A stretch of DNA of 64,000 nt from the NCBI RefSeq assembly GCF_050320075.1, contig NZ_CP190018.1. The stretch is one strand, 5' to 3'. Source of the stretch: Escherichia coli. Lineage in GTDB: Bacteria; Pseudomonadota; Gammaproteobacteria; Enterobacterales; Enterobacteriaceae. The position numbers were made by a program, and so were the translations under genes. The first letter of the stretch is position 1; the number at the start of each line of letters is the position of its first letter. This document shows positions 9,961 to 26,557 of the stretch, piece by piece. The notes under the pieces are model-generated. The model was not told where the DNA came from. It saw only the letters and a list, made by a program, of their open reading frames with translations, and ran no database searches.

Positions 9961-11209
9961 GAGTTCCCCGCGCCAGCGGGGATAAACCGTTTGCTGAGTG
10001 TGCATACACACTTGAACATCAGAGTTCCCCGCGCCAGCGGGGATAAACCGCTATCAGTAACAACCTGGTAAATATCGGTTTTGAGTTCCCCGCGCCAGCG
10101 GGGATAAACCGTTTTCGGGGCCATAAATGGCGCTCATTTATGTGAGTTCCCCGCGCCAGCGGGGATAAACCGGGAAAATAAACGCGTTATTCCTTGATGG
10201 GTGCGAGTTCCCCGCGCCAGCGGGGATAAACCGAGCAACAGGTATTTCATATGGCCTGCCGTGCTGAGTTCCCCGCGCCAGCGGGGATAAACCGGCCAGC
10301 GGCGCTGAGTACGACGACCTGATTAAGAGTTCCCCGCGCCAGCGGGGATAAACCGTCAATACAACAGCAATGCTGGAGCTGGAAAAAGAGTTCCCCGCGC
10401 CAGCGGGGATAAACCGTGGTGGGATAGCTGCTCTGCCAGCGTGTCGCGGAGTTCCCCGCGCCAGCGGGGATAAACCGTGGGCGCAGCTCATGTATTCCAA
10501 TAAGGATATGAGTTCCCCGCGCCAGCGGGGATAAACCGAGATTCGCGCAATGTACGGTAAAGACAGCACCGAGTTCCCCGCGCCAGCGGGGATAAACCGC
10601 CATTCTTGTTGTCGTTCATCAAGCGCAGGGGGAGTTTCCCGCGCCAGCGGGGATAAACCGTTTGTTTTGATGATTTATCAGTATATGAATTGGAGTTCCC
10701 CGCGCCAGCGGGGATAAACCGATTTTTGCGCGGCCTGCATGAAACCAGTGGCAAAGTTCCCCGCGCCAGCGGGGATAAACCGGTACCGTTGAGCAATGGT
10801 GGGTAAATGGTGCTGAGTTCCCCGCGCCAGCGGGGATAAACCGATTTAGATACGGCACACAGGAATGCGCTGGATGAGTTCCCCGCGCCAGCGGGGATAA
10901 ACCGCATGGGAGTCCAGATTACAAATTCCAGAATGGGAGTTCCCCGCGCCAGCGGGGATAAACCGCGCCAGTCTGAGGTTTTCCGGTCATACATCGTGAG
11001 TTCCCCGCGCCAGCGGGGATAAACCGACCGTTGCTACACATATGATCAGGCATGTGCCGAGTTCCCCGCGCCAGCGGGGATAAACCGGACGATGAGACGC
11101 CCTGGTGTGCCGCGTTCGTGAGTTCCCCGCGCCAGCGGGGATAAACCGCGTTTAGCTCCGCAATGTTGGATATCACTGATGAGTTCCCCGCACCAGCGGG
11201 AATAAACCA
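9961..11209 (+). CRISPR. CRISPR array A: 21 repeats of 29 bp (gagttccccgcgccagcggggataaaccg) and 20 spacers of 32 bp; terminal repeat degenerate
   Basis: exact 61-bp periodicity with repeat starts at 9961, 10022, 10083 ... 11120, 11181; variant repeats at 10632 (gagtttccc) and 10754 (aagttcc); last repeat gagttccccgcaccagcgggaataaaccac. Confidence 0.98.
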
Positions 11210-11680
11210 CCATATAACCCGTTATCTCTTTCTCAAGTTTTTATATTAGCAGTACTCGTATTAAGCAACATATCCACGTAACACCTCATGTTCAAAATAG
11301 CTCTCCATATATGAGAAGTTCACAATTATCGATACAAAAAATCAAATTTAATCAAAGTGTTATTTGTATAATCCTTAAACCGTTAAGAAATTTTAACATA
11401 TTATTTTTTTAATATTAATTAATGCCTGTTAATTTTTTCTTTAGAATAACAGTGTATTTTTTAAGCTTGTTATTCATTGATTAAGTAATAAATCTGGAAA
11501 TTTGTCTTTGTTTTGAGGCTAATGAGTGGTTTTACATAATCGCCTCTATACGCTGTTGATGAATAGTTCTTATGAATAAAGATATCCAGTTCATACTTTA
11601 AGTGAAAATTGATAAAGTGCGATTCGTATTGTCTTTTATTCTAAAGACATCGAGTGTAGTTAATATTCCTTGTAAAAACA

Positions 11681-11800
11681 GGGATAAACCGAACTAGTTA
11701 AAGTTTTTATTATGTTCCCTGCATCAGCGGGGATAAACCGGACTTGTTATCATTTTTTAAGTTGTCGAACTTATGTTCCCCGCGCCAGCGGGGATAACCA
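11681..11800 (+). CRISPR. degenerate CRISPR remnant: one 3' partial repeat plus two decayed repeats, no recognisable leader
   Basis: gggataaaccg at 11681..11691; atgttccctgcatcagcggggataaaccg at 11712..11740; atgttccccgcgccagcggggataacca at 11773..11800, with a 32-bp spacer between the last two. Confidence 0.75.
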
Positions 11801-11846
11801 TTCAGGTATGTTCAGGCCGGGCAGTTTCCCGCCCGGTCTTCCTCAC

Positions 11847-13325
11847 TTACGCATTCGACCAGCTCTGGATCGAATCCGCATTCCCCAATTCCCCATGCAT
11901 CACTTCATACGATTTTTTCAGGATTACATCAGTATGTTTGGTTAACTCCTTGAAAATGCCTTTATTCATCGCGTTGTAGCGTTTGGCGTTGCTCTCAACA
12001 GGCATAAAGATATCTTTCACGCGAACCATTTTGTCGACAGCCGTTGCGTAATCCGGGTATAGCCCCAGACCTACCGCCGTATTAATCGCTGCCCCCAGGC
12101 TTGCACAACCATTAATGGCGTTACGGCGTGCCGGAAGGTTGAACACGTCGGCAAAAATCTGCATAAACAGATCGCTGTTCGAACCGCCGCCAGTAATGAT
12201 CACATGCTTTGCAAAGTGATTCATTTCATTACACATATTGTCGTAATTGTTCTTCAGCGTCAGCGCCACGCTTTCCAGTATCGAACGATATATCCATGCG
12301 TAATCCATGCTGGAATCAAAGCCAATCATAATCCCGCGTTTGTACGGTTCCCACGGATTGGTCAGCCAGTCCAGCACCGTCATCAGACCATTACAGCCTG
12401 GCGGCACACAAGACGCTTTTTTGTTGAGCAAATCTTCCGGTGAAAGATCCTGTGCTTTGGCATCCTGAATTAACGACTCGCCTAACATGTCGCGTAGCCA
12501 GCTCACCGTCCACATGCCTTTGCGAATACCGTAACCTTCATACAGCAAGGTTTGCGGAATAGAAGACATAATCGGCCAGTACGCTACCGGATCTTTCGGT
12601 AGTAATTTGCCGTTCATCATCAACGCGATGTAAGTGCCAAGAGAAATTACCGCAGTTTCATCATCCAGTAACCCGGCTCCCAGTGCTTCTACCGGTTTAT
12701 CACTGGTGGTACAAACAACCGGCAGCCCAGCCGGGAAATGTGTCGCCAGCGCGGCTTGAGGAGTGATATGCCCAAGAACAGTGCCCGGCATTTGCACATC
12801 AAACAGCATATGACGGGGGATATTAAACTTCTCCATGACTGCGGCATCTTCACTCCATGCCCAGGTCTTATAATCCACCGGCCACTGACCAAAATAGTTG
12901 GCGATATTGTCTTTAAACTCGCCGGTTAAGCGATGCGTCAGATAACCCGAAAAAGAGGTGACATATGCCACGTCAGGATTCGTATGTTCGTAAGGGCGTG
13001 TAACGCGTGCATCCTGCCAGCTAATCAACGGCGCAGCTGGCGTGCCATCGGCTTTCAATAACGCACGGCAGCAACGGATGGATCCCAGACCAATACCGAC
13101 AATATCTTCTTTATTTCCGGCAAACTGACTCATCAAATCGTGACCGGCAAAGCATAATGATGCCCATAAATCGTCGTCAGGATGTTCTGCGGTATCGGCA
13201 TCTGGCGTGTGCATCGGCTGCAATAAGCCTTTGCCTTCGCAAACCACATTACCTTCCAGATCGTACATCACCACTTTTGTGCTCTGACTTCCACCATCAA
13301 TCCCTATGATGTATTTTTTCGACAT
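11847..13325 (-). CDS. ygcE: FGGY-family carbohydrate kinase
   Basis: 492-aa ORF MSKKYIIGIDGGSQSTKVVMYDLEG...; FGGY kinase N- and C-domain signatures. Confidence 0.85.
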   Translation of the reverse strand: MSKKYIIGIDGGSQSTKVVMYDLEGNVVCEGKGLLQPMHTPDADTAEHPDDDLWASLCFAGHDLMSQFAGNKEDIVGIGLGSIRCCRALLKADGTPAAPLISWQDARVTRPYEHTNPDVAYVTSFSGYLTHRLTGEFKDNIANYFGQWPVDYKTWAWSEDAAVMEKFNIPRHMLFDVQMPGTVLGHITPQAALATHFPAGLPVVCTTSDKPVEALGAGLLDDETAVISLGTYIALMMNGKLLPKDPVAYWPIMSSIPQTLLYEGYGIRKGMWTVSWLRDMLGESLIQDAKAQDLSPEDLLNKKASCVPPGCNGLMTVLDWLTNPWEPYKRGIMIGFDSSMDYAWIYRSILESVALTLKNNYDNMCNEMNHFAKHVIITGGGSNSDLFMQIFADVFNLPARRNAINGCASLGAAINTAVGLGLYPDYATAVDKMVRVKDIFMPVESNAKRYNAMNKGIFKELTKHTDVILKKSYEVMHGELGNADSIQSWSNA

Positions 13326-13351
13326 GATTTTTCTCCTGTAATTTTCTGGAC

Positions 13352-14629
13352 TTACTTGCTGCTAGCCATAGCAGGGGCGCTATCAGCAGTACGAATTTTT
13401 TGGAACAGCAAAAAGGTAAAGACGATCACCATGGCAAGCGCCGCCATGCCCATCAGCCACATATTGCGGTAGGCTTCTGCAGCGGGCAGGGTGTCTTGCC
13501 AGTAGCCGATAATCGGGTAAACGAAGACATCCGGCAGGAATCCAATCACCGAACAAATACCTACCGTGGTGCCCATAATGTAAGACGGTGTTCTCGCTTC
13601 GCCAGGGCAGGCCCAGTACAGCCCGCGTGAGGCGTAACAGGTGAATCCCAGCAGTAAAATCAGGCCAATCCCCATCGCGACCGATTGCGGGTTAGAGTTC
13701 GTGACGAGCAGGGCAGTTAACGCCAGCAAGCCGAGTACGGAAAGGATTTGGATCACGCGGGTAGGGGATTTCACTTTGCTGTAGGTGGTGATAATGCCGC
13801 CAAGTGGGCCGCACAGCGCGCGGAAGATTTTGTTGATCACAATCCCCATGTAGCTCGCCGCCACCAGCGACATGCCGTACATTTCGGTCAGATAGTTGGT
13901 GGAGTAACTCAGAATGGCGTAGATGGTGAAGACGCCAAAAATCACCATGCTGCAATACCAGGTGGTGCTGATGCGCAAAACGGCCAGGATGTCGCTAAGC
14001 TGGAATGACTGTTTTTCTTCGTTATTGGCACTGCGCAGATTGTTGTTATCGCTAACAAAAAACCAGCACAGAATCCCCAACAAGATGTAAACCACACTAT
14101 AGATGATGATGACCGTTTTCAGACTGGCGCTGTCATCCGGAGCGAAGCGAGAAAAGACCCACATGGTAAACACCGCCAGCGACATTACACCGACGCCGCG
14201 CAGCCCTTCCATCCAGCCCATAATTTTCCCTTGCTCGCTATGATCGCCCAGCAATGAGGCGGCTTTAATCGACACCGACCACAGCATTAAAATAGTGGTT
14301 ATCGCAAAGGCGACCTGAATACAGAGCATTACCCACAGCGGTGGATATGTTGCCATTAACAGACCCAGTAATCCGGTAATGATCATCGCGGAAGTAATCA
14401 TTTTGCGGTGTGAAAATTTATCGGCAATAACGCCGCTGGGGGCATAAAGAATAATGGCCGCAATACCAAATGTACTCATTATTAAACCTATCTCGGTATT
14501 GCTGAATCCCATAAATTTCGCTATGGGAATTTGATAAATATAACGTAAATAAGCCAGGTCGAAACTAACGCCGCCGCTAAAACTAATTATCGCGAGGGTT
14601 ATCCAACGGCGATATGAGTTGTGTTGCAT
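13352..14629 (-). CDS. yqcE: MFS transporter
   Basis: 425-aa highly hydrophobic ORF with about 12 predicted transmembrane segments; immediately upstream of ygcE on the same strand. Confidence 0.8.
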   Translation of the reverse strand: MQHNSYRRWITLAIISFSGGVSFDLAYLRYIYQIPIAKFMGFSNTEIGLIMSTFGIAAIILYAPSGVIADKFSHRKMITSAMIITGLLGLLMATYPPLWVMLCIQVAFAITTILMLWSVSIKAASLLGDHSEQGKIMGWMEGLRGVGVMSLAVFTMWVFSRFAPDDSASLKTVIIIYSVVYILLGILCWFFVSDNNNLRSANNEEKQSFQLSDILAVLRISTTWYCSMVIFGVFTIYAILSYSTNYLTEMYGMSLVAASYMGIVINKIFRALCGPLGGIITTYSKVKSPTRVIQILSVLGLLALTALLVTNSNPQSVAMGIGLILLLGFTCYASRGLYWACPGEARTPSYIMGTTVGICSVIGFLPDVFVYPIIGYWQDTLPAAEAYRNMWLMGMAALAMVIVFTFLLFQKIRTADSAPAMASSK

Positions 14630-14652
14630 ATCGTATTCCCATTTGTAATAGA

Positions 14653-14700
14653 CAAAAAAAAGAGAAAAGTAAGCCGCCCTTTCAGGTGGATTACTTTTCT
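14653..14700 (-). terminator. intrinsic terminator/attenuator in the 5' leader of yqcE (minus-strand transcript)
   Basis: perfect 11-bp stem gagaaaagtaa / ttacttttctc with 18-nt loop, followed on the minus strand by 8 U, then about 23 nt to the yqcE start codon. Confidence 0.65.
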
Positions 14701-14807
14701 CAGGTCTCTAGTAATTGCAATAAGAAATAACATGGAAAGCAGTGGTGTTGTGTGAGAGTAATCACGCTTCTGCTTTTTAAAATTATTTGACAATTCGAAT
14801 ATCACAC

Positions 14808-14823
14808 TGTGATTACGATCACA
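14808..14823. promoter_or_regulatory. candidate CRP binding site TGTGA-ttacga-TCACA in the divergent yqcE/ygcW control region
   Basis: perfect match to both half-sites of the CRP consensus TGTGA-N6-TCACA. Confidence 0.55.
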
Positions 14824-14876
14824 TTAGCGATTATGCCCTTATGATAAAAATTATCTCCAGTTACCAGAGATAATGA

Positions 14877-14923
14877 GAAAGGTAACTTCCCTCTCGCGGG
14901 GGAAGTTACCTTTCTTTTTTTTT
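14877..14923 (+). terminator. intrinsic terminator/attenuator in the 5' leader of ygcW (plus-strand transcript)
   Basis: perfect 14-bp stem gaaaggtaacttcc / ggaagttacctttc with 10-nt loop, followed by 9 T, then 24 nt to the ygcW start codon. Confidence 0.7.
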
Positions 14924-14947
14924 GCCTTACGGAAATTGGAGCTAACT

Positions 14948-15733
14948 ATGTCAATCGAATCTCTCAATGCGTTCTCAATGGATTTTTTCTCCCTGAAAGG
15001 TAAAACCGCAATTGTTACCGGCGGGAATAGCGGTTTAGGCCAGGCATTTGCCATGGCGCTGGCCAAAGCAGGCGCAAATATCTTTATTCCAAGCTTCGTT
15101 AAAGATAACGGCGAAACAAAGGAAATGATTGAAAAACAGGGTGTTGAGGTGGACTTCATGCAGGTGGATATCACCGCAGAAGGCGCGCCGCAGAAGATAA
15201 TCGCCGCCTGTTGCGAACGTTTCGGTACCGTCGATATTCTGATTAACAATGCCGGTATTTGTAAGCTGAATAAGGTGCTGAACTTCGGTCGTGCCGACTG
15301 GGACCCGATGATTGATGTGAACCTGACCGCCGCATTCGAGTTAAGCTATGAAGCTGCAAAAATTATGATCCCGCAGAAAAGCGGTAAAATCATTAATATC
15401 TGTTCATTATTCTCTTACTTAGGTGGACAATGGTCACCTGCATATTCTGCCACTAAACATGCTCTTGCCGGATTCACCAAAGCTTACTGTGATGAACTAG
15501 GTCAATATAATATTCAGGTAAATGGTATTGCCCCTGGCTATTATGCAACAGATATTACGCTGGCGACACGCAGTAATCCAGAAACCAATCAGCGCGTTCT
15601 TGATCATATTCCGGCAAACCGTTGGGGCGATACTCAGGATTTAATGGGCGCAGCCGTATTCCTCGCAAGTCCGGCATCGAATTATGTCAACGGACATTTA
15701 TTAGTGGTTGATGGTGGTTATTTAGTGCGCTAA
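14948..15733 (+). CDS. ygcW: short-chain dehydrogenase/reductase (KduD/FabG-like); start placed after the leader terminator
   Basis: TGGNSGLGQAF Rossmann motif and S...Y..K catalytic signature (YSATKHAL); the ORF-track start at 14873 would run through the terminator hairpin. Confidence 0.85.
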   Translation: MSIESLNAFSMDFFSLKGKTAIVTGGNSGLGQAFAMALAKAGANIFIPSFVKDNGETKEMIEKQGVEVDFMQVDITAEGAPQKIIAACCERFGTVDILINNAGICKLNKVLNFGRADWDPMIDVNLTAAFELSYEAAKIMIPQKSGKIINICSLFSYLGGQWSPAYSATKHALAGFTKAYCDELGQYNIQVNGIAPGYYATDITLATRSNPETNQRVLDHIPANRWGDTQDLMGAAVFLASPASNYVNGHLLVVDGGYLVR

Positions 15734-15802
15734 TCCATAACGGTGGTTTCTGTTTTCTCTTATTAATGATTATTCCATTTTTATTATCAGGAAGGAATTA
15801 CT

Positions 15803-17257
15803 ATGTCTTTATCTCGCGCAGCGATTGTCGACCAGCTAAAGGAAATTGTTGGTGCAGATCGCGTAATTACCGATGAAACAGTATTAAAGAAGAACAGTAT
15901 TGACCGTTTTCGCAAATTTCCGGATATTCATGGCATTTATACTTTGCCGATTCCGGCAGCGGTCGTAAAACTCGGTTCCACAGAACAAGTATCCCGTGTG
16001 CTGAATTTTATGAATGCGCACAAAATTAACGGTGTGCCGCGTACCGGTGCTTCCGCTACCGAAGGTGGGCTGGAAACCGTTGTGGAAAACTCGGTGGTGC
16101 TCGACGGCTCTGCCATGAATCAAATCATTAATATTGATATTGAGAATATGCAGGCCACGGCGCAATGCGGAGTTCCGCTGGAAGTGCTGGAAAACGCGTT
16201 GCGTGAAAAAGGTTACACCACGGGGCATTCTCCGCAGTCAAAGCCGCTGGCGCAGATGGGCGGCCTGGTAGCAACCCGCAGTATCGGGCAGTTCTCCACA
16301 CTCTACGGCGCAATCGAAGATATGGTCGTTGGTCTGGAAGCAGTATTGGCTGATGGCACCGTAACACGCATTAAAAACGTACCACGCCGCGCGGCAGGCC
16401 CGGACATTCGTCACATCATCATCGGCAACGAAGGTGCATTGTGCTATATCACTGAAGTAACTGTGAAAATCTTTAAGTTCACCCCGGAAAACAACCTCTT
16501 CTACGGCTATATCCTGGAAGACATGAAAACCGGCTTCAACATCCTGCGTGAAATCATGGTGGAAGGGTATCGTCCGTCGATCGCTCGTTTGTATGACGCT
16601 GAAGATGGCACCCAACACTTCACCCATTTTGCTGACGGAAAATGCGTGCTGATCTTTATGGCTGAAGGTAACCCTCGCATTGCGAAGGCGACGGGCGAAG
16701 GGATTGCTGAAATCGTGGCACGTTACCCGCAATGCCAGCGAGTGGACAGCAAGCTGATCGAAACCTGGTTTAACAACCTGAACTGGGGACCGGATAAAGT
16801 AGCTGCCGAACGTGTGCAGATCCTCAAAACCGGCAACATGGGCTTTACCACCGAAGTGTCCGGCTGCTGGAGCTGCATTCACGAAATCTACGAAAGCGTT
16901 ATTAACCGTATTCGTACCGAGTTCCCGCACGCCGACGACATCACCATGCTGGGCGGTCACTCCTCTCACAGCTACCAGAACGGCACCAACATGTACTTCG
17001 TTTACGACTACAACGTTGTTGACTGTAAGCCGGAAGAGGAAATCGACAAGTACCACAATCCGCTCAACAAAATCATCTGCGAAGAAACCATTCGCCTCGG
17101 TGGTTCGATGGTGCACCACCACGGCATTGGTAAACATCGCGTTCACTGGAGCAAGCTGGAACACGGCAGCGCGTGGACGTTGCTGGAAGGTCTGAAAAAG
17201 CAGTTCGATCCTAACGGCATTATGAATACGGGTACTATCTATCCGATTGAAAAATAA
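15803..17257 (+). CDS. ygcU: FAD-linked oxidoreductase (GlcD / alkyl-DHAP synthase-like)
   Basis: 484-aa ORF with FAD-binding PCMH-type domain. Confidence 0.8.
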   Translation: MSLSRAAIVDQLKEIVGADRVITDETVLKKNSIDRFRKFPDIHGIYTLPIPAAVVKLGSTEQVSRVLNFMNAHKINGVPRTGASATEGGLETVVENSVVLDGSAMNQIINIDIENMQATAQCGVPLEVLENALREKGYTTGHSPQSKPLAQMGGLVATRSIGQFSTLYGAIEDMVVGLEAVLADGTVTRIKNVPRRAAGPDIRHIIIGNEGALCYITEVTVKIFKFTPENNLFYGYILEDMKTGFNILREIMVEGYRPSIARLYDAEDGTQHFTHFADGKCVLIFMAEGNPRIAKATGEGIAEIVARYPQCQRVDSKLIETWFNNLNWGPDKVAAERVQILKTGNMGFTTEVSGCWSCIHEIYESVINRIRTEFPHADDITMLGGHSSHSYQNGTNMYFVYDYNVVDCKPEEEIDKYHNPLNKIICEETIRLGGSMVHHHGIGKHRVHWSKLEHGSAWTLLEGLKKQFDPNGIMNTGTIYPIEK

Positions 17258-17350
17258 TGTGTCAGGCAGCGTTCCGCGATGACGGGGCGTTGCCTTTTCG
17301 GCTTCTCAGGCGAGAAGCCGTTCTTATTACCGGACAATGAAGGGATAAAG

Positions 17351-18688
17351 ATGAACACTTCACCGGTGCGAATGGATGATTTACCACTTAACCGTTTTCA
17401 CTGCCGCATTGCTGCGCTCACTTTCGGCGCACACCTGACCGACGGTTATGTCCTCGGCGTCATTGGTTACGCCATTATTCAGCTTACGCCCGCCATGCAA
17501 CTGACGCCGTTTATGGCGGGAATGATTGGCGGCTCAGCACTCCTTGGTTTGTTTCTTGGCAGCCTGGTTCTGGGCTGGATCTCCGACCATATTGGGCGAC
17601 AAAAAATCTTCACCTTCAGCTTTTTGCTGATTACGCTTGCTTCGTTTTTACAATTTTTTGCCACCACGCCAGAGCATCTTATTGGACTGCGCATTTTGAT
17701 TGGCATTGGTCTGGGAGGCGATTACTCAGTCGGTCACACCTTGCTGGCTGAATTTTCCCCGCGCCGCCACCGCGGTATTTTGCTGGGCGCGTTCAGCGTG
17801 GTGTGGACTGTAGGCTATGTGCTGGCAAGTATTGCCGGACATCACTTTATTAGCGAAAGCCCGGAGGCCTGGCGCTGGCTGCTGGCATCGGCAGCTCTGC
17901 CCGCATTGTTGATTACGTTATTACGCTGGGGAACGCCAGAATCGCCACGCTGGCTACTGCGCCAGGGGCGTTTTGCAGAAGCTCACGCTATCGTGCATCG
18001 CTATTTTGGTCCCCATGTTTTACTGGGCGATGAAGTGGCAACGGCGACCCATAAACACATCAAAACCTTGTTCTCTTCGCGCTACTGGCGGCGCACAGCG
18101 TTTAACAGCGTCTTCTTTGTCTGCCTCGTAATCCCATGGTTTGTGATTTATACCTGGCTGCCAACTATCGCCCAGACTATTGGTCTGGAAGATGCGTTGA
18201 CCGCTAGCCTGATGCTTAATGCGTTGTTAATTGTGGGTGCGCTGCTGGGATTAGTTCTGACGCACCTGCTGGCACATCGCAAATTTTTGCTGGGAAGTTT
18301 TTTGCTGCTGGCGGCAACGCTGGTAGTGATGGCTTGTTTGCCTTCCGGCAGTTCATTAACGCTGCTGCTTTTTGTTCTCTTCAGCACCACCATTTCGGCA
18401 GTCAGTAATCTGGTGGGCATTTTGCCTGCGGAAAGTTTTCCTACTGACATTCGCTCGCTGGGCGTCGGTTTTGCCACCGCCATGAGTCGGTTGGGCGCGG
18501 CGGTAAGTACTGGCCTGCTGCCGTGGGTGCTGGCGCAGTGGGGAATGCAAGTCACCTTATTGCTCCTGGCGGCAGTGTTGTTGGTTGGTTTTGTCGTGAC
18601 CTGGCTATGGGCACCAGAAACCAAAGCACTCCCGCTGGTGGCGGCGGGAAATGTTGGAGGTGCGAATGAACATTCTGTTAGCGTTTAA
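17351..18688 (+). CDS. ygcS: MFS sugar-type transporter; start taken at internal MNTSPVRMDD
   Basis: hydrophobic 12-TM ORF; sugar-transporter-like GR[RK] motifs. Confidence 0.75.
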   Translation: MNTSPVRMDDLPLNRFHCRIAALTFGAHLTDGYVLGVIGYAIIQLTPAMQLTPFMAGMIGGSALLGLFLGSLVLGWISDHIGRQKIFTFSFLLITLASFLQFFATTPEHLIGLRILIGIGLGGDYSVGHTLLAEFSPRRHRGILLGAFSVVWTVGYVLASIAGHHFISESPEAWRWLLASAALPALLITLLRWGTPESPRWLLRQGRFAEAHAIVHRYFGPHVLLGDEVATATHKHIKTLFSSRYWRRTAFNSVFFVCLVIPWFVIYTWLPTIAQTIGLEDALTASLMLNALLIVGALLGLVLTHLLAHRKFLLGSFLLLAATLVVMACLPSGSSLTLLLFVLFSTTISAVSNLVGILPAESFPTDIRSLGVGFATAMSRLGAAVSTGLLPWVLAQWGMQVTLLLLAAVLLVGFVVTWLWAPETKALPLVAAGNVGGANEHSVSV

Positions 18689-19445
18689 AGCCGAACCGGA
18701 TGCCGGAATGCTGGCGGAAAAAGAGTGGCAGGCGGCGGCTCAGGGTAATAGCGGACCGGATGTTTCGCTTCTGCGAAGTTTGCTCGGTGCTGATGAACAG
18801 GCTGCCGCCGCGCTGCTGTTGGCGCAGAGAAAAAACGGTACGTCGATGTCTTTAACCGCGTTGAGCATGGGGGATGAACGGGCGTTGCACTGGCTGCGCT
18901 ATCTTATGGCTCTTGGGTTTGAGGAAGCTGTATTGCTGGAGACGGCGGCAGATCTGCGCTTTGCGCCGGAATTTGTCGCTCGCCATATTGCCGAATGGCA
19001 GTACCAGAATCCGCTGGAGCTGATAATTACTGGCTGCCAAAGCAGCGAAGGGCAGAATGGGCAAACGCCATTTTTGCTGGCGGAAATGCTGGGCTGGCCC
19101 TGCTTCACCCAGGTGGAGCGTTTTACTCTCGACGCGCCGTTTATCACCCTTGAACAGCGTACTGAAAACGGGCTGCGCTGTTGCCGGGTTCGCTTGCCTG
19201 CGGTGATTGCCGTGCGTCAGTGCGGTGAAGTGGCCTTGCCAGTACCGGGAATGCGTCAGCGAATGGCGGTGGGGAAAGCAGCAATTATCCGTAAAACTGT
19301 TGCTGCCGAATCGCCAGCGATGCAGTGTCTGCAACTGGCAAGAGCAGAGCAACAACGCGGAGCGACGCTGATTGATGGGCAAACGGTAGCAGAAAAAGCG
19401 CAAAAGCTATGGCAGGACTATTTACGCCAAAGGATGCAGCCATGA
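18666..19445 (+). CDS. ygcR: electron transfer flavoprotein beta-subunit-like protein (FixA-like)
   Basis: ORF 18651..19445, likely start MNILLAFKAEPD; ETF-beta fold-like sequence; directly precedes an ETF-alpha-like gene. Confidence 0.7.
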   Translation: MNILLAFKAEPDAGMLAEKEWQAAAQGNSGPDVSLLRSLLGADEQAAAALLLAQRKNGTSMSLTALSMGDERALHWLRYLMALGFEEAVLLETAADLRFAPEFVARHIAEWQYQNPLELIITGCQSSEGQNGQTPFLLAEMLGWPCFTQVERFTLDAPFITLEQRTENGLRCCRVRLPAVIAVRQCGEVALPVPGMRQRMAVGKAAIIRKTVAAESPAMQCLQLARAEQQRGATLIDGQTVAEKAQKLWQDYLRQRMQP

Positions 19446-20302
19446 ATATCGCAATTGTGACAATAAATCAGGAGAATGCCGCAACAGCGAGCTGGCAGGC
19501 GGCGCAGGATTTCAGCGGTTGTACCCTGGCGCACTGGAAGATTGAACCTCAGCCCGCTGTGGCGGAACAGGTGCTGGATGCGCTGGTGGAACAGTGGCAG
19601 CGAACGCCAGCGGACGTTGTTCTCTTTCCGCCGGGAACGTTTGGCGATGAACTGTCGACCCGGCTGGCCTGGCGTTTACATGGTGCAAGCATCTGCCAGG
19701 TGACTTCGTTAGATATTCCAACCGTAAGCGTGCGCAAATCCCACTGGGGAAATGCGCTAACGGCGACGCTGCAAACAGAAAAACGCCCGCTATGCCTTTC
19801 GCTGGCACGTCAGGCGGGAGCAGATAAAAACGCCACGTTGCCCTCTGGTATGCAGCAACTGAACATTGTCCCAGGTGCGCTTCCCGACTGGCTGGTTAGC
19901 ATAGAAAACCTGAAAAATGTTACCCGCGACCCATTAGCTGAGGCCAGACGGGTGCTGGTGGTGGGGCAGGGCGGAGAGGCAGATAACCAGGAAATCGCTA
20001 TGCTGGCAGAAAAGCTGGGAGCCGAAGTGGGCTACAGTCGGGCACGAGTGATGAACGGTGGCGTTGATGCCGAAAAAGTGATTGGTATTTCTGGACATCT
20101 GCTGGCACCTGAGGTGTGTATTGTTGTTGGCGCTTCCGGCGCAGCAGCGTTAATGGCGGGCGTACGCAATAGCAAGTTTGTGGTGGCGATTAATCATGAC
20201 GCCAGCGCAGCGGTATTTTCACAGGCAGATGTTGGCGTGGTTGATGACTGGAAAGTGGTGCTGGAGGCACTGGTGACAAACATTCACGCAGAATGCCAAT
20301 AA
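19442..20302 (+). CDS. ygcQ: electron transfer flavoprotein alpha-subunit-like protein (FixB-like)
   Basis: ORF 19409..20302, likely start MNIAIVTINQ; C-terminal FAD-binding ETF-alpha-like region. Confidence 0.7.
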   Translation: MNIAIVTINQENAATASWQAAQDFSGCTLAHWKIEPQPAVAEQVLDALVEQWQRTPADVVLFPPGTFGDELSTRLAWRLHGASICQVTSLDIPTVSVRKSHWGNALTATLQTEKRPLCLSLARQAGADKNATLPSGMQQLNIVPGALPDWLVSIENLKNVTRDPLAEARRVLVVGQGGEADNQEIAMLAEKLGAEVGYSRARVMNGGVDAEKVIGISGHLLAPEVCIVVGASGAAALMAGVRNSKFVVAINHDASAAVFSQADVGVVDDWKVVLEALVTNIHAECQ

Positions 20303-20350
20303 CGTGCAGCCGGATGATCCTGCCTACGGTTTCGGGCTGGGGACTTGTAA

Positions 20351-21124
<774 letters not shown>

Positions 21125-21228
21125 ATCAGCATACTTGTCCTTAGCCTTCTGCAGTGACAGCTGGTAGTACAGCGTGCTTCTGGCCAGCCCTGCAGCCTTT
21201 AACAGGTCAGACTGGCAGTGTCCGCACC

Positions 21229-21759
21229 TCAGGCTCCGGATGACTTTCGTTTTTTCTCCAGCTCCTGGCGCTTTTTTTCCAGGAGATGCTCCTGCATGGC
21301 TTTCAGATATGCATTTTCTGCGCGAAGATAACGTAGCTCATTCTTCATCTCTTCCGGCGTCATGTTTGCCTCGTTTTCATGGGTATCATCAGAACGGGTC
21401 ATGCTTTTCTCCTTCCTGCGCCTGATAAAGGCCTCATTACCAGATTTGCGGTAGCCTTTTATCCAGTTTTTAACCGTGTTGTGGCTGGGAATGTTAAACC
21501 GGGCAGCTACCCGGGGTAGAGACTCAGAATGCCCGAGAGCATAAAGAACCACGCAAAGTTTATCTTCAGGAGAATAGCTACGCTTGTGTCTGCAATCCAG
21601 TGCCCGAGGACCGTGAAGAAGAAAAAGATTAATCCAGTGTGAGAGGCTGGTGTGAGAAAGTTGAAAGAGTTTTGCCGTAGAAATGATGCCTGCATGACCA
21701 GCCAGGTAATGATTTACAGCGGCAAGTTTTACTTCAAATGAATGTTTCATAAACTGCAC
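21229..21759 (-). CDS. IS3-family transposase orfA (HTH plus leucine-zipper region)
   Basis: 176-aa ORF; A AAA AAG frameshift motif at about 21271..21279 (minus-strand ctggaaaaaaagcg) near its 3' end. Confidence 0.85.
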   Translation of the reverse strand: MQFMKHSFEVKLAAVNHYLAGHAGIISTAKLFQLSHTSLSHWINLFLLHGPRALDCRHKRSYSPEDKLCVVLYALGHSESLPRVAARFNIPSHNTVKNWIKGYRKSGNEAFIRRRKEKSMTRSDDTHENEANMTPEEMKNELRYLRAENAYLKAMQEHLLEKKRQELEKKRKSSGA

Positions 21760-21884
21760 CTTCAGATGTCAGATTATGTCCAACATTTGGGGTGCAGTTC
21801 ATCAAGCGTCGCATCAGGCGCTGAATGTCGGATGTGGCGTGCAGCCTACAAATCACACAAATTCAACTCGTTACGAGTATCCCG

Positions 21885-22460
21885 TCAAAGCAATTTTTTC
21901 GCTAACGTCCAGACCCCGGTATTCGTGGTGGAAAGCGCCACAACACCCGCGTTAATCGCATTACGCGCATCTTCTTCATCGCACACCAGCCCGCCGGCAA
22001 TCAGCGGTTGGCGGATTTTCTCCGTCACCCAGCCCAGCACTTTAGGCATACAGCCTGGCAGGATCTCAATACAATCCGGATTCGATTGCGCAACTTGCTT
22101 ATCAATGTTGTGAAACGAAATCGAATCAACAATAAACAGGCGATGAATACAGAAAAAACCTTCCGCTCTTGCCGCTTTCAGCATCGATGCTTTCGTGCTG
22201 ATAATGCCGTCCGCCTCGGTCACCAGTTTCAGAAACTGAATCACCACTTCTTTGTTCGATGCGCCTTCCAGCAAATCAACATGAATAAAGGCATATTTTC
22301 CGGCGTTTTTAATCTTTTTAACGATATTACTGATGGTGCAGATATTGCCGTACAACACTGAAATAAACTGGCATTCAGAATCGATTGCCAGTTGCAGGCT
22401 GGCATTATCTTTAACGGCAGCAATCACCGGATTCTGGCGGAGCAGGTGTAAGAGGGGCAT
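21885..22460 (-). CDS. ygcP: GlpP-family (glycerol-3-phosphate-responsive antiterminator-like) regulator
   Basis: 191-aa ORF; family assignment recalled from the K-12 ygcP annotation, not verified by alignment here. Confidence 0.7.
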   Translation of the reverse strand: MPLLHLLRQNPVIAAVKDNASLQLAIDSECQFISVLYGNICTISNIVKKIKNAGKYAFIHVDLLEGASNKEVVIQFLKLVTEADGIISTKASMLKAARAEGFFCIHRLFIVDSISFHNIDKQVAQSNPDCIEILPGCMPKVLGWVTEKIRQPLIAGGLVCDEEDARNAINAGVVALSTTNTGVWTLAKKLL

Positions 22461-22476
22461 AAATTATCCTTATTAT

Positions 22477-22773
22477 TTATCCAAAGCGGTAGGTGATGCC
22501 GAATCCGGAAGGCGGATAGCGCCACTGTTGTAGTGTTGATTCGTCGCACAGCAAACGGCAGGTGCCACACTCCAGGCAGCCGCGATAATCAACGCGTAAG
22601 TCACCTTCCGGTGTGAGCGAAAAAAGACCAGCCGGACAAGCGTTAATCAACCGTTGTACCGTCTGGCGCTCAACGGAGTCAGCCGGAACAATGTGCGGCG
22701 CATCGGCAACGCGCCAGAGATTACGGGCTACAGACATCGCAGACTCCTGATAACATCGCCCGCCAGATGCCAC
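22477..22773 (-). CDS. ygcO: ferredoxin-like protein (FixX-like)
   Basis: 98-aa ORF with Cys-rich motif (CLECGTCRLLC); overlaps the ygcN stop. Confidence 0.7.
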   Translation of the reverse strand: MASGGRCYQESAMSVARNLWRVADAPHIVPADSVERQTVQRLINACPAGLFSLTPEGDLRVDYRGCLECGTCRLLCDESTLQQWRYPPSGFGITYRFG

Positions 22774-23999
22774 AGGCCGTGACGACGTAAATGACGCCAG
22801 AATAACTGGCGCAGCGGTGGAACAGGTTTATCACCCTGATCCCATAAATCGCGGGAAATATCCTGCATTAACGCAGGCCACGCACGGTACCAGCCAGGGC
22901 GTTGCAAAAGCGCCGGAACATGCTGATAACGTTGTAGAACATCCCATAGCAGGCTGCGCTCGACGTTGTGATGATAAAGCGGAAACAGATTTTGCGGCTC
23001 GCGGTGCTGGCAGGCGCTTATCAGCGTTTGTGCCGCCGCCTGCGCGCCAGTTAGCGCCATATCCATGCCGCGCACGGAAATTCCGGTATTGACGCAACTG
23101 CGCAACGCATCGCCCAGCAGCAGCCAGCCGTTACCGGCGTATTGCACCGGCATACTGTGCAAGCCACCTTCTGGCACCAGATGCGCACCATACTCCAGTG
23201 ATTCCGTGTTTTTGATAAGCGGGCGCACTGCCGGATGCGTTTTAAAGCGAGCCAGCAGCTCGCTTGCCGGAACACGACTTTGCGTAAGGGAAGAGAGCGG
23301 GCAAACAATCCCTAACGAGAGCGTTTGTTGATTAGTATAAAGAAATGCGCCGCCGGGTAAGTCATCACAGATCCCGCCGCTGAACAGCAACGCTGCGTCT
23401 TCGTTATTCTCCAGATGAAAACGTTCTTCAATAGCGGATGTTTCCAGCGACAGCACTTCTTTGATCCCCAACGCCATCGCTTCGCCAGCAGGACGAGTCA
23501 CTAACCCGTGACGTTCAGCCAGGACGCTGTTGGCACCTTCTGCCAGCACCACATAACGGGCGCGGAGAATATCGTCACCACAAATGACACCACACACCCT
23601 GCCGTTTTCTTCATACAGCGCATCCACCGTCGCACCGGGGATGCATTCGACACCTTCTTTTTCGGCTTCGGCAACCAGCCACGGATCGAACCGTGCACGT
23701 AATACACTCCAGGATTCACCGCCGGGCTGTAAGCTGGAAAACGTCGTTGCGCCATCCGGCGTTAGCAGAGAAAGGCTTTCGTGAGTGATGCGTCGTTCAA
23801 GAGGCGCGGTCAGATGAAATTGCGGGAGGAGTTCCGCGAGCGCATGGGTGTATAAACGCCCGCCGGAAAGATTTTTGCTGCCGGGGATTTCAGCGCGTTC
23901 CAGTAACAGAACGGACAAACCTGCCCGCGCGCAGCGTAAAGCACAAGCGGTACCTGCTATACCGGCACCAATAATAATAATGTCGCAGTTGTCTTCCAT
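22728..23999 (-). CDS. ygcN: FAD-dependent oxidoreductase (FixC / ETF-QO-like); start taken at MEDNCDIIIIGAG
   Basis: GxGxxG dinucleotide-binding motif at the N-terminus (IIIIGAGIAGTACA). Confidence 0.8.
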   Translation of the reverse strand: MEDNCDIIIIGAGIAGTACALRCARAGLSVLLLERAEIPGSKNLSGGRLYTHALAELLPQFHLTAPLERRITHESLSLLTPDGATTFSSLQPGGESWSVLRARFDPWLVAEAEKEGVECIPGATVDALYEENGRVCGVICGDDILRARYVVLAEGANSVLAERHGLVTRPAGEAMALGIKEVLSLETSAIEERFHLENNEDAALLFSGGICDDLPGGAFLYTNQQTLSLGIVCPLSSLTQSRVPASELLARFKTHPAVRPLIKNTESLEYGAHLVPEGGLHSMPVQYAGNGWLLLGDALRSCVNTGISVRGMDMALTGAQAAAQTLISACQHREPQNLFPLYHHNVERSLLWDVLQRYQHVPALLQRPGWYRAWPALMQDISRDLWDQGDKPVPPLRQLFWRHLRRHGLWHLAGDVIRSLRCL

Positions 24000-24076
24000 G
24001 TCATGCCCCAGATATCCAGAACACAACACCCTAACATGGCGTTACTTAAGGGAAATTGACCGCCGACACACTCTTA

Positions 24077-24442
24077 TCATTCGCCGCGATAGATACAGCC
24101 TGCAGTACAGGTTTCTTTTACCATCACCGCACTTAACAGCGGCACAACGGGTTTAACCTGATCCCAAATCCATTTTGCTAAAACTTCGCTGGTTGGGTTT
24201 TCCAGACCTGGAATATCATTGAGATAATGGTGATCGAGGCGCTCGTAGGTTGGCTTAAACGCCGCTTTCAGTTCAGCGAAATCGATAATCCAGCCCGTAT
24301 GCGGATCGACTTCCCCGGTAATTTCCAGTCGCACCATAAAGGAATGCCCGTGCAGGCGACCACATTTATGCCCTTCCGGGACGTGTGGTAAGCGGTGAGC
24401 GGCTTCGAAGGTGAAATCTTTAAATAACGTGGTGGACATCAT
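24077..24442 (-). CDS. queD: 6-carboxy-5,6,7,8-tetrahydropterin synthase QueD; start at [10 protein letters not shown]
   Basis: 121 aa; conserved His triad motifs ([20 protein letters not shown]) of PTPS-family enzymes. Confidence 0.9.
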
Positions 24443-24757
24443 AATTTCTCTACAGGACGATAAAACCGCCGTAGAGTACCGGAAAGGCTGTTTTTTCGCA
24501 TTATCTAAAACGACTTTGTTGCGCAAAATCGCTGATTTATCTTATTGATGGGCAATATTCATTTGTTTTTCATTGGGTTGGTTAATCTATTTTGTTGTTA
24601 AAGACTATTGCTAAAACAGGTTAGTCGATTTGGTTATTAGTTATCGCTATCCCGTCTTTAATCCACACCGTTCACCCCGTTAACCTTATCTTCTCTTCTG
24701 TTTTATGGGCGCTGACAGGGCGCAGAAACAGCTTTGCTTACTGGAACATAACGACGC

Positions 24758-26557
24758 ATGACGACACAGGTCCCACCTTCCGCGTTGCTTCCGTTGAACC
24801 CGGAGCAACTGGCACGCCTTCAGGCGGCCACGACCGATTTAACTCCCACCCAGCTTGCCTGGGTTTCTGGCTATTTCTGGGGCGTGCTCAACCAGCAGCC
24901 AGCTGCGCTTGCAGCGACGCCAGCGCCCGCCGCAGAAATGCCGGGTATAACTATTATCTCCGCTTCGCAAACCGGCAATGCGCGCCGGGTTGCTGAAGCA
25001 TTACGCGATGATTTATTGGCGGCAAAACTGAACGTTAAGCTGGTGAACGCGGGCGACTATAAATTCAAACAAATCGCCAGCGAAAAACTGCTTATCGTGG
25101 TGACGTCAACGCAAGGAGAAGGGGAACCGCCGGAAGAAGCCGTCGCGCTGCATAAGTTCCTGTTCTCCAAAAAAGCGCCGAAGCTGGAAAACACCGCATT
25201 TGCCGTGTTTAGCCTCGGCGATAGCTCTTATGAATTTTTCTGCCAGTCCGGGAAAGATTTTGACAGCAAGCTGGCGGAACTGGGCGGTGAACGCCTGCTC
25301 GACCGTGTCGATGCCGACGTTGAATACCAGGCTGCTGCCATCGAGTGGCGCGCCCGCGTGGTTGATGCGCTTAAATCGCGTGCGCCTGTCGCGGCACCTT
25401 CGCAATCCGTCGCTACTGGCGCGGTAAATGAAATCCACACCAGCCCGTACAGCAAAGACGCGCCGCTGGTGGCGAGCCTCTCTGTTAACCAGAAAATTAC
25501 CGGGCGTAACTCTGAAAAAGACGTTCGCCATATCGAAATTGACTTAGGTGACTCGGGCCTGCGTTACCAGCCGGGTGACGCGCTGGGCGTCTGGTATCAG
25601 AACGATCCGGCACTGGTGAAAGAACTTGTCGAACTGCTGTGGCTGAAAGGTGATGAACCTGTCAACGTTGAGGGCAAAACCCTGCCGCTGAACGAAGCGC
25701 TACAGTGGCACTTCGAACTGACCGTCAACACCGCCAACATTGTTGAGAACTATGCCACGCTTACCCGCAGCGAAACGCTGCTGCCGCTGGTGGGCGATAA
25801 AGCGAAGTTACAGCATTACGCCGCGACGACGCCGATTGTCGACATGGTGCGTTTCTCTCCGGCGCAACTGGATGCCGAAGCGCTGATTAACCTGCTGCGC
25901 CCGCTGACCCCGCGCCTGTATTCCATCGCCTCCTCGCAGGCGGAAGTCGAGAACGAAGTACACGTCACCGTTGGCGTGGTGCGTTACGACGTGGAAGGCC
26001 GCGCCCGTGCCGGTGGTGCCTCCAGCTTCCTCGCGGATCGCGTGGAAGAAGAGGGTGAAGTCCGCGTCTTTATCGAACATAACGATAACTTCCGCCTGCC
26101 CGCTAACCCGCAAACGCCGGTGATTATGATTGGCCCAGGCACCGGCATCGCGCCGTTCCGCGCCTTTATGCAGCAACGCGCCGCCGACGAAGCGCCGGGG
26201 AAAAACTGGCTGTTCTTTGGCAACCCGCACTTTACGGAAGATTTCCTCTACCAGGTGGAATGGCAGCGCTACGTCAAAGAGGGCGTGCTGACGCGTATCG
26301 ATCTTGCCTGGTCGCGCGATCAAAAAGAAAAAATTTACGTACAAGACAAACTGCGCGAACAGGGCGCAGAGCTGTGGCGCTGGATCAATGACGGTGCCCA
26401 CATTTATGTCTGCGGCGACGCTAATCGCATGGCGAAAGACGTTGAGCAGGCACTTCTGGAAGTGATTGCCGAATTTGGTGGCATGGACACCGAAGCGGCG
26501 GATGAATTTTTAAGTGAGCTGCGCGTAGAGCGCCGTTATCAGCGAGATGTCTACTAA
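24758..26557 (+). CDS. cysJ: sulfite reductase (NADPH) flavoprotein alpha component
   Basis: 599-aa ORF with flavodoxin-like and FAD/NADPH-binding domains; operon cysJIH. Confidence 0.97.

Follow-up and report, generated by a model that had tools for sequence, protein, structure and literature searches.

Paired leader terminators of the divergent yqcE and ygcW operons in Escherichia coli and their probable antitermination by the GlpP-family protein YgcP

In Escherichia coli, the divergent operons yqcE-ygcE and ygcW-ygcU-ygcS-ygcR-ygcQ (ygcWUSRQ) each begin with a short leader RNA, and we have analyzed these leaders in a stretch of 64,000 nucleotides (nt) from the E. coli contig NZ_CP190018.1 (hereafter the window, to which all positions refer). 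The yqcE/ygcW intergenic region was found to consist of two homologous promoter–leader modules in mirror arrangement. The terminators in these leaders are real and conserved and halt transcription in vivo, and the 5′ arm of each is shared with an alternative, putative antiterminator hairpin that is well supported by comparative evidence. YgcP, a homologue of GlpP, is the only candidate regulator encoded in the locus, and it very probably switches this sugar-like catabolic cluster on; namely, we consider it quite likely that both yqcE-ygcE and ygcWUSRQ are controlled through leader antitermination of the GlpP type by YgcP, with CRP gating the initiation of transcription. A sequence-only reading of this DNA had supposed that such control was described by nobody. 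Indeed, no paper found by us ties the leaders to YgcP, and this link is new, but the two short RNAs (ecr2774 and ecr2775), their 3′ ends, and the CRP site on the ygcW side had already been published.

Two homologous leaders with intrinsic terminators

Genes were called from the list of open reading frames (ORFs) together with the RefSeq annotation of strain CFSAN061763, to which the window is 100% identical. The window is ~98% identical to K-12, the yqcE/ygcW intergenic region is collinear with that of MG1655, and none of the substitutions between the window and MG1655 in this region falls within a hairpin, a leader, or a CRP site. The terminators and the genes downstream of them are as follows.

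14662..14701, minus strand: intrinsic terminator hairpin of the yqcE leader, with the 5′ arm GAGAAAAGUAA (14701..14691) and the 3′ arm UUACUUUUCUC (14672..14662); from the fold, covariation, and a Term-seq 3′ end at 14665.
14654..14661, minus strand: U8 tract of the yqcE leader terminator (A8 on the plus strand); from the sequence, with the 3′ end of ecr2775 mapping here.
13352..14629, minus strand: yqcE, encoding a major facilitator superfamily (MFS) transporter; first gene of yqcE-ygcE, downstream of the minus-strand leader; from the ORF list and the RefSeq annotation.
14875..14916, plus strand: intrinsic terminator hairpin of the ygcW leader, with 19 pairs including 2 G-U pairs and a Term-seq 3′ end at 14910.
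14915..14923, plus strand: U9 tract of the ygcW leader terminator; from the sequence.
14948..15733, plus strand: ygcW, encoding a short-chain dehydrogenase/reductase (SDR); first gene of ygcW-ygcU-ygcS-ygcR-ygcQ, downstream of the plus-strand leader; from the RefSeq annotation.

The RNA of the ygcW hairpin folds with −34.6 kcal/mol (z = −6.55), and 0/200 shuffled sequences fold equally well. The yqcE stem is composed of a perfect outer part of 11 bp and then two internal mismatches (z = −3.1, with 1/200 shuffles as good). The sequence-only reading had proposed two perfect hairpins, each followed by a U run; both are present with strong folds, but its minus-strand positions were off by one, and the word "perfect" is apt for the ygcW side and not for the yqcE side, given the mismatches beyond the outer stem. 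On both sides, the distance from the U run to the start codon is 24 nt (ygcW ATG at 14948; yqcE start codon at 14629..14627). Furthermore, the leaders share the layout RUUACY-AGAGAY(N1-3)-GAGAAA-RGUAAY-[variable inner stem]-UUACYUUUCUC-U8-9, and the homology between them extends from the transcription start onward. The kinship in sequence that had been noticed between the leaders is therefore real and reaches further 5′ than was claimed, into the common UUACY element. Both sides show the hallmarks of intrinsic (Rho-independent) termination: a stable stem-loop, a U tract directly after it, and 3′ ends that, judged by their Rho scores, are insensitive to bicyclomycin. Over 90 distinct leaders, the terminator helix is 91.6% paired, with double changes at 7 pairs, and the slid controls gave 53–65%.

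Termination at both hairpins in vivo

Termination at the two hairpins is evident in published data on K-12. By RNA-seq, Romero et al. (2014) found two short RNAs in the ygcW-yqcE intergenic region and catalogued them as candidate small RNAs (sRNAs): ecr2774 of 73 nt, which precedes ygcW and is transcribed in the same direction, and ecr2775 of 63 nt, upstream of yqcE, which was verified by northern blot. By Term-seq of cells grown in LB medium to an optical density of 0.4, Adams et al. (2021) mapped 3′ ends at 2900311(−) and 2900556(+), which correspond to 14910 and 14665 in the window, respectively, and are both within the hairpin 3′ arms. The ygcW-side end was represented by 40,640 reads and the yqcE-side end by 1,557 reads; with Rho scores of 0.50 and 0.61, neither end was classed as Rho-dependent, and their intrinsic-terminator scores were 15.8 and 11.4, compared with the threshold of 3.0 (Adams et al. 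2021). No regulatory element was noted at either 3′ end in that study. These RNAs and orphan 3′ ends in 5′ untranslated regions (UTRs) are the identical molecules to the leaders described here, but they were catalogued with no function, regulator, or structure being proposed. When the older genome coordinates of the short-RNA catalogue are shifted by ~1975–1978, which we take to be the offset to the window, ecr2774 runs from ~14855–14858 to ~14928–14931 and ecr2775 from ~14716–14719 to ~14653–14656. Each RNA thus spans from just upstream of the conserved UUACY element through to the U run. Premature termination at both hairpins, as anticipated from the sequence, is hence borne out by the short RNAs, the northern blot, and the Term-seq ends.

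It might be argued that the short terminated transcripts are functional trans-acting sRNAs, or that the terminators damp transcription constitutively and read-through is not regulated; after all, the RNAs were first reported as candidate sRNAs and are detectable by northern blot, and the 3′ end of the ygcW leader is abundant in Term-seq. Nonetheless, each cluster has one copy immediately ahead of an operon, with a gap of 24 nt to the start codon in the case of E. coli, and the leader is always beside a gene of the PF04309 family across phyla. Also, the mutually exclusive and covarying upstream helix described below would have no role in a plain sRNA or damper. We therefore regard this explanation as unlikely, while a dual role, in which the RNA would serve as a leader and also as an sRNA, may still be entertained.

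An alternative hairpin sharing the terminator 5′ arm

Upstream of each terminator and overlapping with it, a second hairpin is predicted.

14690..14715, minus strand: putative yqcE antiterminator hairpin, composed of AUUACU (14715..14710), the 14-nt loop AGAGACCUGAGAAA (14709..14696), and AGUAAU (14695..14690); overlaps with the terminator 5′ arm.
14859..14887, plus strand: putative ygcW antiterminator hairpin, composed of AGUUACC (14859..14865), the 15-nt loop AGAGAUAAUGAGAAA (14866..14880), and GGUAACU (14881..14887).

In this hairpin, a helix of 6–7 bp formed by the upstream (A)RUUACY with RGUAAY(U) would enclose a GAGA-rich loop; the helix uses part of the terminator 5′ arm, and only one of the two structures can form at a time. 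In the folding of nascent RNA, the antiterminator hairpin is the best structure until the terminator 3′ arm emerges (−6.7 kcal/mol for ygcW and −1.4 kcal/mol for yqcE), and once the 3′ arm is transcribed, the terminator wins (−31 and −20 kcal/mol, respectively). Because the antiterminator hairpin is weak compared with the terminator, a stabilizing factor would be needed for it to prevail.

The alternative helix is supported by compensatory changes among the leaders. In a MAFFT alignment of the 90 leaders, the helix is 90.8% paired, compared with 15–54% in the slid controls, and the pair types include GC 58/AU 26 and UA 58/CG 23. The 5′ strand of the helix was misaligned in 5/90 rows of this alignment, and the count was repeated on an alignment made with an RNA covariance model, from which antisense shadow hits were removed; this model encodes the terminator only and has no information on the antiterminator helix. 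The helix was then 93.4% paired versus 23–47% in the slid controls, with the pair types GC 65/AU 24, AU 89/GC 4, and UA 66/CG 21. In particular, the nucleotide after RGUAA (column 40) is a mismatch in the terminator of 58/90 leaders and is paired and covarying (G-C to A-U) in the antiterminator, which indicates that this change is specific to the antiterminator helix. Covariation of the leaders in relatives, by which the sequence-only reading was to be checked, is accordingly seen for the terminator helix and for the antiterminator helix.

Given the highly conserved loop sequence, the first hairpin with its GAGA-rich loop could also be regarded as a very small riboswitch that binds a metabolite directly, with YgcP being an enzyme or unrelated; very small aptamers do exist. 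Only ~30 nt are, however, available ahead of the terminator 3′ arm, and an Rfam 15 scan of 11000..25000 returned chance-level matches only at E ≤ 5, with no known riboswitch or cis-regulatory family among them. The motif moreover co-occurs with PF04309 genes in every locus examined, and the similar leader of glpD in Bacillus subtilis needs GlpP. A riboswitch is for these reasons quite unlikely in our view.

Conservation of the paired leaders

With YgcP as a query, 64 loci were fetched and the genes were mapped in each, and 5 further loci were added; ygcP is in the same cluster in all of the 64 + 5 loci retrieved. The divergent yqcE/ygcW arrangement occurs in 49 of the loci, ranging from Escherichia to Serratia, Rahnella, Budvicia, Pantoea, and Erwinia, and both leaders are present in 49/49, with RUUACY, a loop of the AGAG-N-GAGAAA type, RGUAAY, a variable inner stem-loop, UU(A/G)CYUUUCUC, and U7-9. 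The conservation that was expected of the paired leaders in related genomes has thus been confirmed.

One more divergent locus, that of Limnobaculum eriocheiris (L033:13883-13954), was left out of the 49 loci: its intergenic region is ~130 bp with one hairpin flanked by A9/T9, and the promoters and CRP sites are gone. It looks like the product of recombination between two inverted leader copies or of an assembly collapse. In two other loci, L037 (16257-16329 and 16579-16651) and L042 (16312-16384 and 16593-16665), each genome has two identical terminator hairpins that differ from those of the other genome, which suggests gene conversion between the inverted copies; in E. coli, by contrast, the inner stems of the two leaders have diverged. 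Citrobacter youngae and Klebsiella spallanzanii (L011 and L012) have a palindromic insertion of ~127 bp, resembling an enterobacterial repetitive intergenic consensus (ERIC) element, between the yqcE terminator and the start codon.

In a BLAST search, the 70-nt leader was found in 5063/5426 complete E. coli genomes, at a median of two places per genome, namely the two leaders, with the highest number being 4 and with 0 on plasmids; a dispersed repeat or a miniature inverted-repeat transposable element was ruled out on these numbers. The leader is missing from ~7% of the complete E. coli genomes, and only 47 bp is matched in NZ_CP080133.1 and only 29 nt in NZ_AP027619.1, from which the locus appears to have been deleted or rearranged in some lineages. 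Exactly two matches to the covariance model of the leader are present in the window of 64 kb, and enterobacterial loci likewise have two each; with this model, no third copy was found before ygcN-ygcO-ygcP or elsewhere in the window.

The mirrored sequences might instead act as DNA, either as terminal inverted repeats of a degenerate mobile element or as operators for a DNA-binding repressor. The copies are indeed inverted repeats ~200 bp apart, and the identity within the genome in L037 and L042 as well as the apparent recombination in L033 could be taken in the same sense. Each genome nonetheless has only two copies, none being on plasmids, and the copies of Firmicutes and Vibrionaceae often face in the same direction, before separate operons. 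The compensatory changes fit RNA helices, G-U pairs included, transcripts end at the hairpins, and no DNA-binding regulator is encoded in the locus. We thus consider a role at the DNA level highly improbable.

Promoters and CRP sites

Each leader is preceded by a promoter of its own with a CRP site.

14808..14823, no strand: CRP site of the ygcW promoter, TGTGAttacgaTCACA, centered at 14815.5 (~−41.5); from in vitro binding, a PhyloScan prediction, and conserved spacing.
14842..14858, plus strand: predicted ygcW promoter with an extended −10 element, TG (14842-14843), n, and TAAAAA (14845..14850), with the start at ~14853-14859; from the 5′ end of ecr2774 and the conserved TGnTA 16–18 nt from the helix.
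14751..14766, no strand: predicted CRP site of the yqcE promoter, TGTGAgagtaaTCACG, centered at 14758.5 (~−41.5); from the sequence, with ≤1 mismatch at a fixed distance in 49/49 loci.
14716..14732, minus strand: predicted yqcE promoter with an extended −10 element, TG (14732-14731), n, and TATTTC (14729..14724), with the start at ~14716-14719; from the 5′ end of ecr2775 and TGnTA 16–17 nt from the helix in 39/49 loci.

A CRP-like site (≤2 mismatches) is located 42.5–45.5 nt from the helix on both sides in 49/49 loci, and the TGnTA element is 16–18 nt from the helix in nearly all of the 49 loci. The start sites are 1–4 nt ahead of the antiterminator hairpin and upstream of both terminators. 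The ygcW-side CRP site was predicted earlier by PhyloScan and binds CRP in vitro with a dissociation constant (Kd) of 1.7 nM, as reported in a preprint, and yqcE-ygcE appears in a published listing as CRP-activated. The class II spacing (−41.5) holds if transcription starts at ~14857 and ~14717, the starts being known to ~3 nt and the yqcE-side site coming from sequence and conservation. A single CRP site, TGTGA-N6-TCACA at 14808..14823, had been recognized between the leaders; this site stands, but there are two, one for each promoter, and the second had been missed.

The position of the promoter also bears on attenuation by a leader peptide, which was raised as an alternative on account of a 10-codon ORF (MIKIISSYQR, 14841..14873). 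This ORF is present in the strain and ends 2 nt before the ygcW hairpin, and a similar ORF is seen in Escherichia and Citrobacter. Its ATG, however, overlaps with the TG of the extended −10 element and lies 12 nt or more ahead of the 5′ end mapped for the transcript; furthermore, truncations or frameshifts interrupt the ORF in L014, L022, L023, L029, L031, and L063 as well as in every Serratia, Pantoea, and Rahnella locus, and it has no counterpart on the yqcE side. The apparent conservation stems from the nucleotides of the promoter and the helix. With an ORF that is not conserved and starts upstream of the transcript, we reject this alternative, to which we assign next to no probability.

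The motif beside ygcP in distant bacteria

The leader motif was also found beside ygcP homologues in Vibrionaceae, Bacilli, Clostridia, and Negativicutes, ahead of the operons of an equivalent cluster and usually with one copy per operon, as listed here.

Thalassobacillus: 1 copy (58.7 bits).
Vibrio hannami: 2 copies, in the divergent SDR/FGGY-kinase region.
Photobacterium: 2 copies.
Clostridium sediminicola: 2 copies.
Sporomusa: 2 copies.
Fodinisporobacter: 2 copies.
Bacillus sp.: 2 copies.
Listeria: 1 copy per locus, with a weak score and at the identical position in all five loci.
Lachnoclostridium: 1 copy.
Faecalibacterium: 1 copy.

Independent compensatory changes are seen in these copies: G-C replaces A-U in Listeria, Bacillus, and Fodinisporobacter, A-U replaces G-C in Sporomusa, and U-A replaces A-U in the antiterminator helix of Faecalibacterium (GUUUC/GAAAC), at the pair counted above as AU 89/GC 4. 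Where it is readable in the distant copies, a −10-like element is located ~5–10 nt before the helix, which places the hairpin close to the predicted start site. The leaders in E. coli may well be Gram-negative members of a widespread and uncatalogued class of cis-regulatory RNA, in which a hairpin RUUACY-[AGAG...GAGAAA loop]-RGUAAY close to the start site is fused to an intrinsic terminator; this class would be recognized by the YgcP subfamily and mark every operon of a mobile cluster of SDR, GlcD-like FAD oxidase, electron-transfer flavoprotein (ETF), FGGY kinase, and interchangeable transporters in Enterobacterales, Vibrionaceae, Bacilli, Clostridia, and Negativicutes.

Between E. coli and the Listeria, Bacillus, and Thalassobacillus loci (L057-L064), the protein identity is 70–78% for YgcW, 54–59% for YgcP, and 61–67% for YgcU, which is high for such distant phyla and suggests horizontal transfer of the cluster together with its leader RNA. 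As seen from L067, L068, and L071, the transporter of the cluster varies, being of the MFS in E. coli, of the BCCT family in Vibrio and Photobacterium, and of the OpuA type of ATP-binding cassette (ABC) transporters in Fodinisporobacter, and this interchange may be a clue to the substrate.

YgcP as the probable antiterminator

The gene for the presumed regulator is located further downstream in the window.

21885..22460, minus strand: ygcP, encoding a GlpP-family protein (PF04309; Pfam E = 1.6e-62), the presumed trans-acting antiterminator; without a leader motif of its own.

YgcP matches PF04309 at 1-173 of the 173 model positions, with relatives of known structure in PDB entries 3kts and 1vkf, and its assignment to the GlpP family from the sequence is hence well founded. 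In NCBIfam, no model matches YgcP and no ygc protein reaches a curated cut-off, so that no substrate can be assigned by this route; the closest solved relatives of YgcU, namely alkyl-dihydroxyacetone phosphate (alkyl-DHAP) synthase and oxidases of the GlcD/LctD type, give no more than a hint. No functional study came up in our searches of the literature on ygcP, on the remaining ygc genes, on PF04309, or on ecr2774/ecr2775.

That the motif goes with YgcP and resembles the target of GlpP is well supported by comparative evidence on both counts. In B. subtilis, GlpP with glycerol-3-phosphate acts on the 5′ UTR of glpD and on the similar leaders of glpFK and glpTQ, as known from the literature; our comparison covers the glpD leader, the sequence of which was taken from the supplement of a paper. 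In the glpD 5′ UTR, a GGUC/GACC helix encloses the 14-nt loop CUGAGAUGAGGAGA, the 3′ half of which, together with GACC, begins the 5′ arm of the terminator, and this hairpin is the best nascent-RNA fold before the terminator forms. Both systems, therefore, have a PF04309 regulator, an intrinsic terminator in the 5′ UTR, a hairpin with a GAGA-rich loop of ~14 nt overlapping with the 5′ arm, one leader per operon of the regulon, an FGGY-family kinase and an FAD-dependent dehydrogenase in the regulon, and a global catabolite regulator on top of the specific control; the loops of glpD and ygc have a common GAGAU...GAG(A/G)A theme. The systems differ in the helix (GGUC/GACC versus RUUACY/RGUAAY), in the Gram-negative host, where probable CRP class II promoters replace CcpA, and in the regulon, which comprises glycerol genes in B. 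subtilis and, as known from sequence, SDR, GlcD-like FAD oxidase, ETF, and MFS genes here. Since these are not glycerol genes, the ligand of YgcP is probably not glycerol-3-phosphate.

Two other kinds of protein-dependent leader can be compared with the ygc leaders. In the BglG/SacY/LicT systems with the ribonucleic antiterminator (RAT), found in bgl of E. coli and in sac and lic of B. subtilis, a weak antiterminator that overlaps with the 5′ arm of a leader terminator is similarly stabilized by a protein before a catabolic operon, but the ygc locus encodes no CAT-PRD protein, the RNA element is different in sequence and shape, and the signal is phosphorylation by the phosphotransferase system (PTS) there and presumably a bound metabolite here. 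HutP and TRAP recognize NAG/GAG repeats, and the ygc loop likewise has two GAG motifs a few nt apart, with a ligand-activated protein that would choose between terminator and antiterminator; the protein folds are, however, unrelated, and many repeats are bound by 6- to 11-mers in those cases, compared with two GAG motifs in one hairpin loop here.

On these grounds, the following mechanism can be proposed. By default, the terminator 3′ arm displaces the weak first hairpin and transcription stops, giving the 63-nt and 73-nt RNAs that are detected in cells. When a phosphorylated metabolite, probably the product of the FGGY-family kinase YgcE, is bound to YgcP, the protein would bind and stabilize the first hairpin, namely the antiterminator. 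The stabilized hairpin would sequester GAGAAA-RGUAAY, the 5′ arm of the terminator, and RNA polymerase would then read into yqcE-ygcE and ygcWUSRQ, for which the ~24 nt after the terminator carry the ribosome-binding site in each module. With CRP-cAMP gating initiation, the operons would be expressed only when carbon is limiting and the inducer is present. GlpP and glycerol-3-phosphate control glpFK and glpD of B. subtilis by the same logic. At the core of the cluster are an FGGY kinase, an SDR, the GlpP homologue, and an FAD oxidase with kinship to GlcD and alkyl-DHAP synthase; this set parallels GlpK, GlpD, and GlpP, and it is from this parallel that we infer a phosphorylated product of YgcE as the inducer.

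That terminators on both divergent operons are relieved by YgcP, as the sequence-only reading had it, is supported by termination in vivo, the covarying helix, the co-occurrence of the motif with ygcP, and the likeness to glpD, with the YgcP step itself being what these observations point to. Since the binding of YgcP to the leaders is presumed, antitermination might be real and yet depend on something else, for instance an RNA chaperone of the cold-shock type or an RNA-binding protein with a global role. The linkage of the motif with ygcP across distant taxa and the precedent of the PF04309 family, however, point to YgcP, and another factor is very unlikely. The proposal of one catabolic regulon holds in part: the leader is present on yqcE-ygcE and ygcWUSRQ, but ygcN-ygcO-ygcP, which encode Fix-like proteins and the regulator, are without it.

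Several points weigh against antitermination by YgcP or limit its strength. Our literature searches found no experiment tying YgcP to these leaders and no ligand, and we infer both the dependence on YgcP and the inducer. The likeness to glpD consists in architecture and a short loop motif, and is taken here as a strong functional resemblance, not proven homology. The compensatory changes amount to few independent events, in ~5–7 lineages, with the helix otherwise highly conserved in sequence. Furthermore, the 5′ strand of the helix resembles the terminator 3′ arm, and the covariation is hence partly three-way, so that this part, by itself, would be expected alike from RNA pairing and from recognition of both sequences by a single factor. 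The Term-seq 3′ ends fall 6–13 nt short of the ends of the U tracts, within the A/U-rich lower stems, whereas the RNA-seq ends reach the U tracts; we attribute the short ends to trimming by 3′ exonuclease back to the G+C-rich inner stem, which would fit their positions. Also, the start sites were read from RNA-seq coverage given in older genome coordinates, with a precision of ~3 nt.

If the class of leaders proposed above and its recognition by YgcP are real, the motif would define the regulon and help to find its substrate, and with YgcP a GlpP-type antiterminator would be seen at work in a proteobacterium for the first time; to our knowledge, GlpP-type control has been studied only in Bacillus, and we know of very few systems of protein-mediated antitermination of catabolic operons in enterobacteria, of which bgl is the textbook case. 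A cluster of 10 y-genes in E. coli K-12, two orphan short RNAs, and two orphan 3′ ends would gain a concrete mechanism. The conserved leader could be used as a read-through reporter in a search for the inducer, and its motif as a marker of the operons of this cluster across phyla.

Neighboring genes

Around yqcE and ygcW, the window contains ygcE on one side and ygcU-ygcS-ygcR-ygcQ on the other, followed by an IS3 insertion and then ygcP-ygcO-ygcN. According to the RefSeq annotation of the identical strain, an array of clustered regularly interspaced short palindromic repeats (CRISPR) is located at 10327-11209, between queE and ygcE. The insertion is an IS3-family transposase with a programmed frameshift (20402-21750) between ygcQ and ygcP, where other Escherichia loci have a short gap only, and it may affect the formation of the ygcQ 3′ end or convergent transcription.

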